NCBI RefSeq assembly: GCF_056712565.1
Contig: NZ_CM160072.1
Strand: one strand, 5' to 3'
Length of the DNA stretch: 64,000 nucleotides
Below the pieces are notes generated by a model, which worked only from the letters and a program-made list of their open reading frames with translations, did not search any database and was not told where the DNA came from. Position 1 is the first letter of the stretch; each line of letters opens with the position of its first letter. Below, one piece after another: positions 5,470-46,251 of the stretch. Made by a program: the position numbers and the translations under genes.

Positions 5470-5503
5470 AAAAAAAGGCCCCTGTTGAAATTGCAGGGGC
5501 CTG
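5470..5503 (-). terminator. Rho-independent terminator downstream of cutC
   Basis: aggcccctg...caggggcct hairpin with an A-run on the plus strand (U-run on the minus-strand transcript). Confidence 0.6.
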
Positions 5504-5548
5504 GTACGAGCAAGCATCATATTGGGCGACATGATGCAACGGTAAAAA

Positions 5549-6304
<756 letters not shown>

Positions 6305-7090: not shown

Positions 7091-8824
7091 GTGAATATTC
7101 AGGCTCTTCTCTCAGAAAAAGTCCGTCAGGCCATGATTGCGGCAGGCGCGCCTGCGGATTGCGAACCGCAGGTTCGTCAGTCAGCAAAAGTTCAGTTCGG
7201 CAACTATCAGGCTAACGGCATGATGGCAGTTGCTAAAAAACTGGGTATGGCACCGCGACAATTAGCAGAGCAGGTGCTGACTCATCTGGATCTTAACGGT
7301 ATCGCCAGCAAAGTTGAGATCGCCGGTCCAGGCTTTATCAACATTTTCCTTGATCCGGCATTCCTGGCTGAACATGTTCAGCAGGCGCTGGCGTCCGATC
7401 GTCTCGGTGTTGCTATGCCAGAAAAACAAACCATTGTGGTTGACTACTCTGCGCCAAACGTGGCGAAAGAGATGCATGTCGGTCACCTGCGCTCTACCAT
7501 TATTGGTGACGCAGCAGTGCGTACTCTGGAGTTCCTCGGTCACAAAGTGATTCGCGCAAACCACGTCGGCGACTGGGGCACTCAGTTCGGTATGCTGATT
7601 GCATGGCTGGAAAAGCAGCAGCAAGAAAACGCCGGTGAAATGGAGCTGGCTGACCTTGAAGGTTTCTACCGCGATGCGAAAAAGCATTACGACGAGGATG
7701 AAGAGTTTGCCGAGCGTGCACGTAACTACGTGGTAAAACTGCAAAGCGGTGACGAATATTTCCGCGAGATGTGGCGCAAACTGGTCGACATCACCATGAC
7801 GCAGAACCAGATCACCTACGATCGTCTGAACGTGACGTTGACCCGCGATGACGTCATGGGTGAAAGTCTCTACAACCCAATGCTGCCGGGTATCGTGGCG
7901 GACCTGAAAGCCAAAGGTCTGGCAGTAGAAAGTGAAGGCGCGACCGTTGTATTCCTTGATGAGTTCAAAAACAAGGAAGGCGAACCGATGGGCGTTATCA
8001 TTCAGAAGAAAGATGGCGGCTATCTCTACACCACCACTGATATCGCCTGTGCGAAATATCGTTATGAAACACTGCATGCCGATCGCGTGCTGTATTACAT
8101 CGACTCCCGTCAGCATCAACACCTGATGCAGGCGTGGGCTATCGTCCGCAAAGCAGGCTATGTACCGGAATCCGTACCGCTGGAACACCACATGTTCGGC
8201 ATGATGCTGGGTAAAGACGGCAAACCGTTCAAAACCCGCGCGGGTGGTACAGTGAAACTGGCCGATCTGCTGGATGAAGCCCTGGAGCGTGCACGCCGTC
8301 TGGTGGCAGAAAAGAACCCGGATATGCCAGCCGACGAGCTGGAAAAACTGGCTAACGCGGTTGGTATTGGTGCGGTGAAATATGCGGATCTCTCCAAAAA
8401 CCGCACCACGGACTACATCTTCGACTGGGACAACATGCTGGCGTTTGAGGGTAATACCGCGCCATACATGCAGTATGCTTACACGCGTGTATTATCCGTG
8501 TTCCGTAAAGCAGAAATTGACGAAGAGCAACTGGCTGCAGCTCCGGTAATCATCCGTGAAGATCGTGAAGCGCAACTGGCAGCTCGCCTGCTGCAGTTTG
8601 AAGAAACCCTCACTGTGGTTGCCCGTGAAGGCACGCCGCATGTGATGTGTGCTTACCTGTACGATCTGGCCGGTCTGTTCTCTGGCTTCTACGAGCACTG
8701 CCCGATCCTCAGCGCAGAAAACGAAGAAGTGCGTAACAGCCGTCTGAAACTGGCACAACTGACGGCGAAGACGCTGAAGCTGGGTCTGGATACGCTGGGT
8801 ATTGAGACAGTAGAGCGTATGTAA
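7091..8824 (+). CDS. argS: Arginine--tRNA ligase
   Basis: 577 aa with class I aaRS HIGH-type motif (HVGH) and recognisable ArgRS sequence throughout; GTG start per ORF track. Confidence 0.95.
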
Positions 8825-8841
8825 TCGCGTTATACGGCAAC

Positions 8842-8872
8842 AGCCGATGTCATTGCAGACATCGGCTTTTTT
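8842..8872 (+). terminator. Rho-independent terminator after argS
   Basis: agccgatgtc-attgca-gacatcggct followed by TTTTTT; sits in the 52-bp gap to flhE. Confidence 0.7.
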
Positions 8873-8876
8873 ATCA

Positions 8877-9269
8877 TTAACGATAATTTACAATCACTTC
8901 ATTCCGTTGAATCTTTAGCGGCGGAATTAACCGCCCACCGCCAGGCACTTCCCAGATAAAGCGCAACGGTTCTGCCGCCGGTATACCGGAAAAGGCCATG
9001 GTGGTTCCACTCTGCCCCTCTAATTCGACACAACGAGATTGTGAACACAAGCGAACCCGCAGTCCTGCAGGTGTCGGACCGATAAGCTGATAACGCCACG
9101 CCACCAGCGTCATCAATCCTGAAGCAGGTTGTCGCGTAGAAAGAGGCGCTGACGACATCGATTCACCGCGATGATTTAGCGTAACGCCCACGCTACTCGC
9201 CTGCCACATCCCCTCCCCGGCGGCTTGCACCAGCAGCGGAAACAATAATATTGCTAATAAGGCTCTCAT
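8877..9269 (-). CDS. flhE: Flagellar protein FlhE
   Basis: 130 aa with signal peptide; last gene of the flhBAE operon. Confidence 0.85.
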   Translation of the reverse strand: MRALLAILLFPLLVQAAGEGMWQASSVGVTLNHRGESMSSAPLSTRQPASGLMTLVAWRYQLIGPTPAGLRVRLCSQSRCVELEGQSGTTMAFSGIPAAEPLRFIWEVPGGGRLIPPLKIQRNEVIVNYR

Positions 9270-15686: not shown

Positions 15687-15913
15687 TCAGGATACCACTG
15701 GCGCAATTTGTAACTGCGCCGACTCATGTCGTGCTACTTCATGTTCTTCAAGGGTAAATACCGCCACACGCGACGAAAGATGGTCGGCCTGATTCAGTCG
15801 TTGCAAATCGTCGCGAAATGCCCAAAAGACATGCCGTTACTGCCAATCTGCAAGATCCCGCAGAGAATCAAAATTAAAAACAGCGTGGTCGAAATTCGAA
15901 TACGATTAAACAT
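15687..15913 (-). pseudogene. tap: Remnant of methyl-accepting chemotaxis protein IV (tap): N-terminal and C-terminal codons only
   Basis: Minus-strand ATG at 15913 encodes MFNRIRISTTLFLILILCGILQIGSNGMSF and stops after 37 codons; another frame reads FWAFRDDLQRLNQADHLSSRVAVFTLEEHEVARHESAQLQIAPVVS* ending 18 bp before cheR. Only 227 bp lie between tar and cheR where a full tap is ~1.6 kb. Confidence 0.8.
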
Positions 15914-22068: not shown

Positions 22069-22194
22069 GACATCATCCTTCCACTGTTGACCATGACAGG
22101 ATGTTCAGTCGTCAGGCGTTAACACGCGATAGGGGCAAAAGAAAGCAGCGGTACATCGTTACCGCTGCTGGAATGTTTCGCCACACCGTATCAG

Positions 22195-22773
22195 TTAAAC
22201 AGCCTGTACTCTCTGTTCATCCAGCAGTTGTGGGATAATATCGGCAGGATTCTGGGAAAGTTTACGTCTTTTTACTGCCCGGGATGGCGGCTGACATAAG
22301 CTGCAGGCAAAGCTGCCAACAGGCTGGTGAGCATGGGTAATAAAATTGCCGCCGCAGCAGTTGCAGCTGGAAAGTTGCAGTAATCCACTTTCAACAAACC
22401 GCACCAATGTCCAGGCACGGGTTAATGCCAGCAGCGGTCCTTCTTCTGCTTGCGGGCACTGTTCAAGGTATAAACGGTAGGCTTTGATCACCGCATCGAC
22501 GCCATTACACAAGCCAGTTTTCAGTAAAAACTGCCATGCATTACAGAACATCGAAGCATGAACGTTTTGTTCCCAGGTCATAAACCAGTCGGTTGAAAAT
22601 GGCAGCATGCCTTTCGGCGGTGGGCTTCCGCGCAGTTCTTTATAGAGTTTTATCAGACGTCCGCGACTTAACTGTGTTTCGCTTTCCAGCATCTGCAAAC
22701 GAGCGCCCAGGGTGATCAATTCCATTGCCAGCTGAATATCCCGCGCTTCCTGAACAATGCTTTTTTCACTCAT
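22195..22773 (-). CDS. flhC: Flagellar master regulator subunit FlhC
   Basis: 192 aa with C-terminal Zn-binding cysteines (CSLCQP...CNCCGG). Confidence 0.95.
22239..22265 (-). promoter_or_regulatory. Sigma-28 promoter for motA, located inside the 3' end of flhC
   Basis: Minus strand reads TAAACTTT-N11-GCCGATAT (one mismatch in each element to the sigma-28 consensus); lies within the flhC coding sequence. Confidence 0.6.
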
Positions 22774-22775
22774 GA

Positions 22776-23126
22776 TCAGGCCCTTTTCTTGCGCAGCGCT
22801 TCTTCAGGCTGATTAACATCATTCAGCAAGCGTGTTGAGAGCATGATGCCGGTATGAATTTGCTGGAGATCGTCAACGCGGGAATCTTGCGTCAACTGAG
22901 TAATCGTCTGGTGGCTGTCAAAACGGAAGTGACAAACCAGTTGATTGGTTTCTGCCAGCTTAACCATTTGCGGAAGAGTCAGTGCCGCTAACGTTGTCGC
23001 CATTTCTTCATTTATGCCGAGACGAAACATAGCGGACGCTTTGTCCTGAACAATCAGACGCTGTGCAAGTAGTAAATATGACAAGTTGATGTCATAAATG
23101 TGTTTCAGCAACTCGGAGGTATGCAT
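22776..23126 (-). CDS. flhD: Flagellar master regulator subunit FlhD
   Basis: ORF 22776..23135; start set at [25 protein letters not shown] (116 aa). Confidence 0.9.
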
Positions 23127-23905
23127 TATTCCCACCCAGAATAACCAACTTTATTTTTATGCGGTCTCACCGCACCCCGTGATGTCGCCGGGAAGCCCCG
23201 GTAAAAAATAATTAGCATTAGAATAGTTGCGATAAGCTGCAATAAGCAGACCCACCTTTTTGGTTTAATAAGTCCTTACAAATAGAAGGGGGTCTTTACA
23301 CTTATCTAAGATTTTTCCTAAATCGACGCAACTGTACTCGTCACTACACGCACATACAACGGAGGGGGGCTGCGATTTTCAATAATGTGTGATGCAGATC
23401 ACACAAAACGCTCAATTACTTAACATAAATGTATAAGTCATACTTTTGTTTTGGGTGTATTTCAATCTGTTAAAAAATTTTTCGCTACACTGGCAAGCAA
23501 AAATGAAACAGGAATAATCGAAATGGGATGTTGCGCACAGTTAAAATAACTCACCGTAAATAATCATCTGCTATAAATAATCGCTTTAATGCAATACCAG
23601 ATAAGCCATTTTTAAACAAACACTTACCGCACAACAAACTAATTAACTACAAAGAAAGGCAACAATCAACCCAATGTTAATAAAATGTTTTACATATATT
23701 AACCACTTGTTCAATATGGGAAATCAGTACATTATTTTCTTATAAATACAGTTGAAATCATATGATAACCAAGAGCAATTGATTAATTGTATTTACTAAT
23801 GACCAGACTAATATTTACCTGTTTAACTGAGTTGGGATTGCGTCGTTTCTCCATTAGGAGTAAAGCTTTAATGTCACCTGAAGTTCACAGAATAAGGAAC
23901 AGGTT
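23127..23905. promoter_or_regulatory. flhDC class I promoter / long 5' UTR and divergent uspC promoter region
   Basis: 779-bp AT-rich non-coding interval between divergent flhD and uspC; no ORF of note on either strand. Confidence 0.6.
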
Positions 23906-31658: not shown

Positions 31659-31910
31659 TTAATGGGATTCGCCCTGTGGGGTAAACTTGAGTTCAATCAA
31701 CGCGATGGCTTTTTGGATTGCCCGCATGGTGACCGGGTCTGCGGCGGCGGGATGGTTAGTAAAGTCGATATTCTTCAGCTGGCTGGACATTTTTTCGCGA
31801 ACTTCAACGGGCGCGATCACATCGAGAACATCCAGAATTTGTTTGATAACCAACTGGCAAGCAACCACATCAGAAACCAGTTCCTGATCGGCATTCAGCG
31901 GCTGGGACAT
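31659..31910 (-). CDS. yecJ: Uncharacterised protein YecJ
   Basis: 83-aa ORF at the conserved position between ftnB and yecR. Confidence 0.7.
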
Positions 31911-32023
31911 CGTAAACTCCTGATAGCATTTTGAAAGCCTTTATAGTAGCGGCTTCACATCTTCAGCGATAGTCACATCCACCGTCATCAGAACACAAAA
32001 AAACCTGCCGGAGCAGGTTTTTT

Positions 32024-32110
32024 GTTATCGGAACATATTGCCTGGCGGTACGTCTTTGAACGTCTTGCAATAGTTATTGAACATACTTTTCAGGATCTTG
32101 CGCAGTTTCA
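32024..32110 (-). CDS. azuC: Small membrane protein AzuC (28 aa)
   Basis: Minus-strand ORF encodes MKLRKILKSMFNNYCKTFKDVPPGNMFR*, matching the known 28-aa small protein at this locus; not in the ORF track because it is below the length cut-off. Confidence 0.8.
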
Positions 32111-32374
32111 TCGCGGTACTCCGACCATTTGTTATACAGGTGTTATTGTCTTTACATTTATAATATGACAACCATCACAAAAATCAATCTTTATGTGATG
32201 TAAATCACATAAATACCCCTTTAATGTTATAAAAATGATAATCAAAAAGCAGCCCCCCCAATTTCTAACACATACAGATGGCAAGAAATAGCGCCTGCCA
32301 GGCGTCTTTTCCGGCCATTGTCGCAGCGCTGTAACGCGTAAAATACTGCTTTCTTTTACTCTTCTGGCTGGACC

Positions 32375-32698
32375 ATGAGACTTCTGATTCTGACTCTTTC
32401 CTTAATAACGCTGACAGGATGTACGGTTACTCGCCAGGCCCATGTGAGCGAAGTTGACGCGGCAACAGGTATTGTTCGGTTGGTTTATGATCAGGCTTTT
32501 TTGCAGCATGCCAGTACCGATCGTTATGTCAGTCGCGGGATCGCCGATCGCGCATGCCAGCAGGCAGGCTATACCCACGCTATCCCCTTTGGTCAGCCAG
32601 TAGGCAACTGTAGCCTCTTTGCGGGTTCCTTATGTTTGAATACGGAATTCACTTTGTCATATCAGTGCCATCATTCCGCCTTCCCTGTCTTTCTCTAA
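32375..32698 (+). CDS. yecR: Lipoprotein YecR
   Basis: 107 aa with lipobox (LITLTGC). Confidence 0.75.
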   Translation: MRLLILTLSLITLTGCTVTRQAHVSEVDAATGIVRLVYDQAFLQHASTDRYVSRGIADRACQQAGYTHAIPFGQPVGNCSLFAGSLCLNTEFTLSYQCHHSAFPVFL

Positions 32699-35762: not shown

Positions 35763-35957
35763 ACGCTTTTCCTTGTGGATCTCAACTCGCCAGCACCTAT
35801 CTTACATGCCGGTCCGTATCAGAGATACTTTTTGAGTGGCTTTGCCGGTGATTAAAAATTAAGGAGGGTGTAACGACAAGTTGCAGGCACAAAAAAACCA
35901 CCCGAAGGTGGTTTCACGACACTGCTTATTGCTTTGATTTTATTCTTATCTTTCCCA

Positions 35958-39502: not shown

Positions 39503-39960
39503 AGGAATATCTCCAGAAATAGGGATAACGCTACTGATAGTTAGTCATTCGTATATTAGCGGTTTTTATTGCAACTTTGAAACGTTAAAAATGGTGGGTA
39601 TTCGATTTTTCTCTCGTTTTTGTCAATTCGATTGTCCACAGTTATGGTCACGCCCGTCACCAACGGCTTCCGGGATCGTTTCACAGTAAGCCCGGCGATG
39701 AAATGTGACAAAAATTGACTTTATTCAGCAAAAATGAAAATCAGCCCGCTGAATATGTAACATTAATTAACCCGAACAATACGGGCAAAAAACATTCATG
39801 ATAAAAATATTTATTGGTCATTATATTAACGTATTTTATAGTACTGTTGATATCACGCTCAAAAAACAACCACTGCTATTTTTAGCAAAGCTTATGGTAT
39901 ACTCCGCCGCCTTAACATTTTTCACCGCAAATTTTCATTGCAACATGACGAGGAAAATAA

Positions 39961-40185
39961 ATGAGTACGCCTGATTTTTCTACTGCCGAGAATAATCAAG
40001 AACTGGCAAATGAAGTCTCCTGCCTGAAAGCGATGCTGACGCTGATGCTGCAGGCGATGGGACAAGCTGACGCGGGCCGCGTGATGTTAAAGATGGAAAA
40101 ACAGCTTGCGCTGATCGAAGACGAAACCCAGGCTGCAGTATTTTCCAAAACGGTTAAGCAAATTAAACAAGCCTACCGTCAGTAA
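39961..40185 (+). CDS. yecF: Uncharacterised small protein YecF
   Basis: 74-aa ORF at the conserved position between uvrY and sdiA, followed by a terminator. Confidence 0.7.
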
Positions 40186-40975: not shown

Positions 40976-41204
40976 AGTAAACCGCAACGCCCCTGAGAGT
41001 GAGTATCATTTATAATGATAATTCAAACTATCACATAAATAAGATTTATATATAATTTATATTATTCAGGCAATGAATTACTTTTGCAAGCCATCGCATT
41101 CTCTTATGTTATTAATGAGTTATGCTGATTTGTTAAGCAGTTTTATCACGTTTGAAATGGCGTCCCGCCCCGACTGGTGAATCGTCGGGGCTGATTTTTT
41201 CTTA

Positions 41205-46053: not shown

Positions 46054-46078
46054 GAAAAAAACCCCGCCGTTGGCGGGG
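46054..46078 (-). terminator. Rho-independent terminator at the end of the fliC 3' UTR
   Basis: ccccgcc-gttg-ggcgggg hairpin with a plus-strand A8 run (U-run on the minus-strand transcript). Confidence 0.7.
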
Positions 46079-46107
46079 AAGCACATTGCTGACAAATTAC
46101 GCTTCAT

Positions 46108-46210
46108 GTTGCCGGATGCGGCGTAACGCCTTATCCGGCCTACAAAAATCTGCAAATTAAATAAATTGCAATTCACCTTGTAGGCCTGATAAGCACAGCG
46201 CACCAGGCAA
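46108..46210. repeat. REP/BIME palindromes within the fliC 3' UTR
   Basis: gccggatgcggcgtaacgccttatccggcctaca and gtaggcctgataagcacagcgcaccaggca. Confidence 0.7.
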
Positions 46211-46251
46211 TTTGGCGTTGCCGTCAGTCTCAGTTAATCAGGTTACGGCGA

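Follow-up and report, generated by a model that had tools for sequence, protein, structure and literature searches.

The small gene azuC lies within the dual-function AzuCR RNA in an S88-like Escherichia coli chromosome segment

The stretch of DNA analysed here, 64,000 nucleotides in length and called the window below, is, judging by its sequence, a segment of an S88-like B2/ExPEC Escherichia coli chromosome. It is collinear over its whole length with positions 1908039-1972038 of E. coli S88, with mismatches at 9 of 64000 positions. On the minus strand, positions 32025..32111 encode azuC, a reading frame of 28 codons followed by a TAA stop codon, with the ATG at 32111..32109, and its translation reads MKLRKILKSMFNNYCKTFKDVPPGNMFR. 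On this strand the start codon is preceded by ...GGAGTACCGCG, and the frame opens with ATG AAA CTG and closes with TTC CGA TAA. The initial annotation had reported MKLRKILKSMFNNYCKTFKDVPPGNMFR on the minus strand, which is correct, but had given its span as 32024-32110, which is one base off and needs to be shifted by +1; read as the azuC frame, 32024..32110 gives an out-of-frame translation with stops. The gene does lie in the gap between yecJ and yecR, where it had been placed. It is flanked by yecJ at 31659..31910 on the minus strand, encoding a protein of 83 aa, and by yecR at 32375..32698 on the plus strand, encoding a lipoprotein of 107 aa.

It had further been remarked that the gene was too short for the ORF track, and azuC is indeed missing from the list of ORFs of at least 60 aa. 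When the minimum length is set to 20 aa the frame is present solely as a 48-aa ORF that starts at a TTG codon and spans 32025..32171. Since the TTG at 32171 is found upstream of the mapped transcription start at 32153, the 48-aa form is an artefact produced by the rule for calling ORFs. The six frames of the window contain 389 ATG ORFs of at least 28 aa, 230 of which are 28-59 aa long, and a 28-codon ORF is by itself not above chance expectation. What lifts azuC above chance is its match to the annotated azuC and a conservation across species that is specific to the codon positions.

The annotated gene is found at the same place. In the RefSeq record of S88, the gene annotated as azuC, 'stress response protein AzuC' (WP_010723106.1), has coordinates that correspond base for base to 32025..32111 of the window. 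In K-12 MG1655 azuC is b4663, 'small regulatory membrane protein AzuC', found at 1987873-1987959 between yecJ and yecR and nested within the ncRNA azuR b4434 (1987843-1988001). The K-12 gene maps to 32111..32025 with 86 of 87 nucleotides and all 28 amino acids identical, the sole difference in the CDS being a synonymous one in Lys5, AAG versus AAA. The protein matches the NCBIfam equivalog NF033642 (stress_AzuC) over profile positions 1-26 of 26, with 75.9 bits against a cutoff of 30 and an E value of 1.3e-21. A search with AzuC against the local copy of Pfam gave no match, while PF28150 is precomputed in the protein database for all AzuC homologues. The identity with azuC that had been proposed from the sequence is thus borne out by S88, by K-12 b4663 and by NF033642. 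The check that had been suggested for it, an alignment to the annotated azuC, was run, and both sequence and location agree.

A region of 381 bp around azuC is matched in 5419 of 5426 complete E. coli genomes. It is 100% identical in B2/ExPEC strains such as S88, UM146 and IHE3034, and all genome matches listed for it are annotated as 'azuC: stress response protein AzuC'. The orthologous position is also kept, azuC being found upstream of and co-oriented with yecJ and divergent from yecR. The object is therefore already known, and azuC inside the dual-function AzuCR RNA is an ordinary finding.

The initial annotation left out the RNA around azuC: the gene lies inside a dual-function sRNA, AzuCR, also named IsrB or IS092. 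This RNA entered the literature as a candidate sRNA, and in K-12 its +1 is at position 1988001 and its length 164 nt (PMC8915982). The +1 corresponds to position 32153 of the window, and the transcript covers about 31990..32153 on the minus strand, the 164-nt form ending near 31990. The K-12 RefSeq ncRNA azuR b4434, which is 159 nt long, maps to 31995..32153 with 157 of 159 nucleotides identical.

A promoter scan found a sigma-70 promoter at 32160..32187 on the minus strand, with a -35 hexamer TTGATT (32187..32182), a spacer of 16 nt and a -10 hexamer TATTAT (32165..32160), which ends 7 nt ahead of the published +1. Two CRP-type boxes are found on the same strand. The proximal one, TGTGA-TGGTTG-TCATA at 32164..32179, is centred at about -18.5 and overlaps both the spacer and the -10; we take it as a predicted CRP site. 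The distal one, TGTGA-TTTACA-TCACA at 32194..32209, is centred at about -48.5. The promoter hexamers and the CRP half-sites are 90-100% conserved in 57 species. CRP-mediated repression of the azuCR promoter has been published together with predicted CRP sites (PMC8915982, Fig. 1A legend), and a study from 2025 reported repressor sites for FNR, PhoP and NarP at azuCR of K-12 (PMC12266141). The K-12 FNR site, 1988039-1988058 (PMC12266141), corresponds to 32191..32210 and coincides with the distal CRP-type box. When the K-12 coordinates of the other two (PMC12266141) are converted using an offset of 1955848, the predicted repressor sites at 32198..32228 on the minus strand are found, 32198..32215 for PhoP and 32212..32228 for NarP.

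Within the leader, the motif CACCUGU at 32136..32142 on the minus strand (+12..+18, 25-31 nt upstream of the ATG) was computed to form a duplex with the 5' end (GCAGGUG) of the K-12 sRNA FnrS. The published FnrS target position at azuCR is the same, 25-31 nt upstream of the ORF (PMC8915982), and the surrounding sequence TAACACCTGyATAACA is highly conserved across genera. A Shine-Dalgarno sequence, GGAG, is found at 32119..32122 on the minus strand, 7 nt before the ATG, and is at least 95% conserved in the 57 species. Directly after the azuC stop codon begins the stem-loop of an intrinsic terminator, located by a terminator scan at 31990..32023 on the minus strand. It consists of AAAAAACCTGC-TCCG-GCAGGTTTTTT (32023..31998) and a U-rich tail, and both the stem and the T-run are at least 95% conserved across genera. 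Searching the locus against Rfam 15 gave no family at the gathering score, only sub-threshold matches to STnc370 and rsmX on the terminator. The STnc370 matches are due to resemblance between terminators, and the missing family match is apparently due to Rfam having no model for AzuCR/IS092 and is apparently no evidence against membership.

When compared with AzuCR of K-12 (Raina et al. 2022 PNAS, PMC8915982), the protein is identical and the transcript of the window agrees in 161 of 164 nt. The promoter hexamers, the CRP half-sites, the FnrS site, the Shine-Dalgarno sequence, the pairing region, the terminator and the yecJ/yecR context are all the same. The three substitutions in the transcript (window/K-12) are +37 A/G, located between the Shine-Dalgarno sequence and the AUG, the synonymous +57 G/A and +162 T/C; the stretch +58..+161 is identical. 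Outside the transcript, the window has AAATGT where K-12 has AAGCGC between the -10 and the +1 (32154..32159, minus strand), a discriminator-like stretch that is AT-rich in the former and GC-rich in the latter. In the spacer of the distal CRP/FNR box (32199..32204, minus strand) there is a 2-nt change, TTTACA in the window versus TTTGTA in K-12. The differences at +37, in the stretch before +1 and in the box spacer are all at positions that vary among genera, but they could alter the expression level.

Proteins named AzuC are found in Escherichia, Shigella, Citrobacter, Klebsiella, Raoultella, Leclercia, Enterobacter, Buttiauxella, Pluralibacter and Cronobacter; the query used in the homologue search was the 48-aa TTG-extended ORF. 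Orthologues were also collected by scanning genome contigs, one genome per species, with a degenerate DNA pattern for MKLRKILKSM. The scan gave 59 loci, 56 of which are AzuC orthologues of 27-28 aa from more than 20 genera of Enterobacteriaceae. The other three, in Treponema, Doudnabacteria and Tatlockia, are chance matches and were left out. Over all 27 shared codons, 6, 6 and 24 of 27 sites are variable at codon positions 1, 2 and 3, respectively, with pS 0.47, pN 0.059 and pN/pS 0.125. Since the search pattern fixes codons 1-10, selection was also assessed from codons 11-27 alone. Here 4, 6 and 16 of 17 sites are variable, with pS 0.59, pN 0.09 and pN/pS 0.15. The remaining two sense frames contain stops in 57 of 57 and 38 of 57 sequences. 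The azuC frame evolves as a protein-coding sequence under purifying selection at the protein level.

It might be argued that the locus encodes a purely non-coding sRNA (IsrB/IS092) and that the 28 codons are open by chance. The abundance of short ORFs, 230 with an ATG start and a length of 28-59 aa in this window, would agree with this, as would the original description of the RNA as an sRNA candidate and the outcome of the local Pfam search. Against it stand the concentration of variation in third positions, also in the codons that were not used for ascertainment, the ORF length of 27-28 aa kept in 56 species, the conserved Shine-Dalgarno sequence and start, and the NCBIfam equivalog match. 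Furthermore, SPA-tagged as well as untagged AzuC, the latter using an antiserum, has been detected in K-12, where a ribosome-profiling signal is also found on the RNA (PMC8915982). The substitution pattern and the published detection of the protein refute a purely non-coding RNA, and this explanation has next to no probability.

Residue 12 of AzuC varies within Escherichia. The codon, 32076..32078 in the window, encodes Asn in the window, in K-12, in Escherichia sp. E1V33 and in E. whittamii, while Asp is found in the GTDB E. coli representative E69, in E. albertii and in a widespread 'MULTISPECIES' variant. In other genera the residue is Glu or Ala, and Asn was found in none of those.

Another possibility is that the true product is one of two 48-aa ORFs, either the one starting from the TTG at 32171 or one on the opposite strand, 32022..32168 (plus strand). 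Both are present in the mechanical ORF list, 55 of 57 species have no stop in the antisense frame, which lies in the codon register of azuC, and some of the AzuC gene calls in databases are extended at the N-terminus. However, the TTG sits inside the promoter, ahead of the +1. No in-frame ATG, GTG or TTG was found in the 5' UTR between the +1 and the azuC ATG, the length of this UTR differs between genera, and the N-terminal extensions in the databases are not conserved. As for the antisense frame, its openness is explained by only three codons, two for Leu and one for Ser, ever being able to yield antisense stops, and third-position variation in the sense frame would strike first positions in the antisense one. 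The sites vary as they should in the sense frame, and the antisense frame is judged to be a by-product and no gene. That either 48-aa ORF is the true product can hence be given hardly any credence, and the 28-aa AzuC is kept as the product in what follows.

AzuC has a net charge of +6, and its longest run free of K, R, D, E, N, Q and P is 3 residues. A bilayer-spanning hydrophobic segment of about 18-20 residues was looked for in the sequence and none was found. For residues 1-20 the helical hydrophobic moment amounts to 0.53, a value reached by 1.4% of shuffled sequences, and L3, I6, L7, M10, F11, Y14 and F18 are found on one face of the helix. In K-12, AzuC associates with the inner membrane as an amphipathic helix, and this association is abolished in an I6E/L7E mutant (PMC8915982). 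AzuC of K-12 also binds GlpD and increases its dehydrogenase activity, and recruitment of GlpD to the membrane has been proposed as the mechanism (PMC8915982). The amphipathicity seen here fits the published peripheral membrane binding and the proposed recruitment of GlpD. The description of AzuC as a known small membrane protein is accordingly right in the sense of a peripheral amphipathic helix, as published for K-12 (PMC8915982), but not in the sense of a transmembrane protein, since the hydrophobic segment is missing. From the K-12 literature we infer that the GlpD interaction, the repression of targets and the regulation of AzuCR probably hold for the window strain as well.

In K-12, AzuCR represses cadA by pairing near the RBS and galE by pairing inside the coding region (PMC8915982). 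The best local duplex predicted between AzuCR and K-12 cadA involves +85..+114 of AzuCR and -16..+16 of cadA, with -29.3 kcal/mol as compared to a mean of -21.3 and a standard deviation of 3.4 kcal/mol for shuffles, and spans both the Shine-Dalgarno sequence and the AUG of cadA. The pairing was predicted using local windows of 32 nt; unrestricted RNAduplex gave meaningless duplexes of the whole molecules. The predicted AzuR base-pairing region thus occupies 32040..32069 on the minus strand, corresponding to azuC codons 15-24. The predicted pairing site in galE is +714..+743. The cadA duplex serves as a consistency check only, and it fits the published pairing near the cadA RBS and the overlap with the ORF. 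The pairing region being inside the azuC ORF, translation and base pairing compete, and they have been reported to interfere with each other mutually (PMC8915982, PMC12612679).

When it comes to conservation, the pairing region behaves differently within and beyond Escherichia. As the transcript of the window differs from that of K-12 only at +37, +57 and +162, the pairing region is unchanged, and it is nearly invariant within Escherichia. Across genera, the mean identity to the window at synonymous sites is about 0.64 in the predicted pairing region versus 0.54 elsewhere in the ORF. These sites are not noticeably more conserved, so no cross-genus constraint at the RNA level is seen beyond that of coding. 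This comparison of sequences suggests that the role as sRNA may be phylogenetically narrower than the role of the protein.

Several azuC-bearing bacteria, namely Citrobacter, the Enterobacter cloacae complex and Leclercia adecarboxylata, are classically lysine-decarboxylase negative. Such genera would lack the cadA target, which favours a reading where the locus is essentially an mRNA for a small protein and AzuR pairing is restricted to a lineage or dependent on overexpression, and of minor importance in the window strain. The strong constraint on the protein in more than 20 genera, with synonymous sites that are near saturation (pS 0.59), also in the pairing region, points in the same direction. 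In addition, the published repression of targets was largely obtained by overexpression from plasmids, and a stop-codon mutant repressed more strongly (PMC8915982). On the other hand, compensatory mutations showed direct pairing with both cadA and galE, and cadA-gfp increased in a chromosomal azuCR deletion (PMC8915982). With the pairing region of the window being the same as in K-12, it is rather improbable that the locus acts essentially as an mRNA only, and a dual-function AzuCR is still preferred.

In 53 of the 56 Enterobacteriaceae species yecJ (DUF2766) is the next gene after azuC on the same strand, and the gap between them is 78-138 nt in 49 of these 53, with a median of 107 nt and 114 nt in the window. 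Adjacency to yecR upstream of azuC is specific for Escherichia; in three other genera that were inspected, a divergent ORF of about 430-470 aa and an ORF of about 212 aa are found between azuC and yecR. It is conceivable, if still doubtful, that azuC began as, and mainly remains, a protein gene tied to yecJ, that the pairing with cadA and galE is a recent layer in the Escherichia lineage, and that YecJ may share a pathway involving GlpD or the membrane. The reason for suggesting a recent layer is that the ORF, the promoter, the FnrS site and the terminator are kept in more than 20 genera while the synonymous sites of the pairing region drift.

Taken together, the locus is almost certainly azuC within the dual-function AzuCR (IsrB/IS092) RNA of an S88-like B2/ExPEC chromosome. 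The sigma-70 promoter, flanked and overlapped by the two CRP-type boxes, would drive a transcript of about 164 nt from 32153 to about 31990 on the minus strand, which would terminate at the intrinsic terminator. As an mRNA it would be translated from GGAG-N7-AUG into the 28-aa AzuC, a +6-charged amphipathic helix. As the sRNA AzuR, the stretch within the ORF would pair with the RBS of cadA and the coding region of galE and cause repression. Pairing with FnrS 25-31 nt upstream of the AUG would repress translation under anaerobiosis, while transcription is expected to be repressed by CRP when glucose is missing and, according to the 2025 report (PMC12266141), by FNR, NarP and PhoP. For the biology of E. 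coli nothing new follows from this. The lesson concerns annotation: an ORF track with a length threshold misses a functional and experimentally characterised gene, and the same 164 bases carry a regulatory RNA besides azuC.

The initial annotation had also taken azuC as a reminder that the window may hold other genes of less than 60 aa. This is true to a modest extent, as yecU is the sole other annotated one, while yecV of K-12 is absent. yecU is found at 39798..39974 on the plus strand and encodes 58 aa, its 3' end overlapping the start of yecF. The K-12 segment with yecV (14 aa) and yecT is missing at about 8824..8877, between argS and flhE, and a BLAST search with yecV against the whole window gave no match. 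Six further sRNAs of K-12 map into the window at 95-100% identity and are unannotated in the S88 RefSeq record. MicL (5470..5776), MotR (22137..22231), 3'ETS-leuZ (35891..35957) and FliX (46055..46246) are found on the minus strand, and AsflhD (23105..23324) and SdsN (41064..41200) on the plus strand.

Some larger differences from K-12 were also observed. The chemoreceptor gene tap, which is full length in K-12, is a frameshifted remnant of 152 nt at 15762..15913 on the minus strand, between cheR and tar. The region upstream of flhD, about 23127..23905, is without IS1, while K-12 MG1655 has IS1H there. The interval between yedK and fliE (55405..58848) contains a porin gene annotated as ompC, ybcM, ybcL and emrE, where K-12 has yedL, yedN and intG; the interval has the appearance of an island or replacement specific to the strain.

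AzuC shares several properties with the single-pass small inner-membrane proteins of E. coli of the AcrZ type. Both kinds are shorter than 50 aa and fall below standard ORF thresholds, and both reside at the inner membrane and exert their effect by attaching to a larger partner protein. They differ in that AzuC has no hydrophobic segment and binds the membrane by means of an amphipathic helix. As an RNA, AzuCR resembles SgrS/SgrT of E. coli and VcdRP of Vibrio cholerae, although neither of these has any sequence relationship to it. In each case one transcript both encodes a small protein of less than 50 aa and pairs with mRNAs, and all three act in carbon metabolism (PMC8915982, PMC12612679). 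VcdRP is further like AzuCR in being repressed by CRP and in encoding a peptide that activates an enzyme (PMC8915982, PMC12612679). However, SgrS/SgrT and VcdRP have distinct regions for coding and for pairing, while in AzuCR the pairing takes place inside the ORF (PMC8915982).
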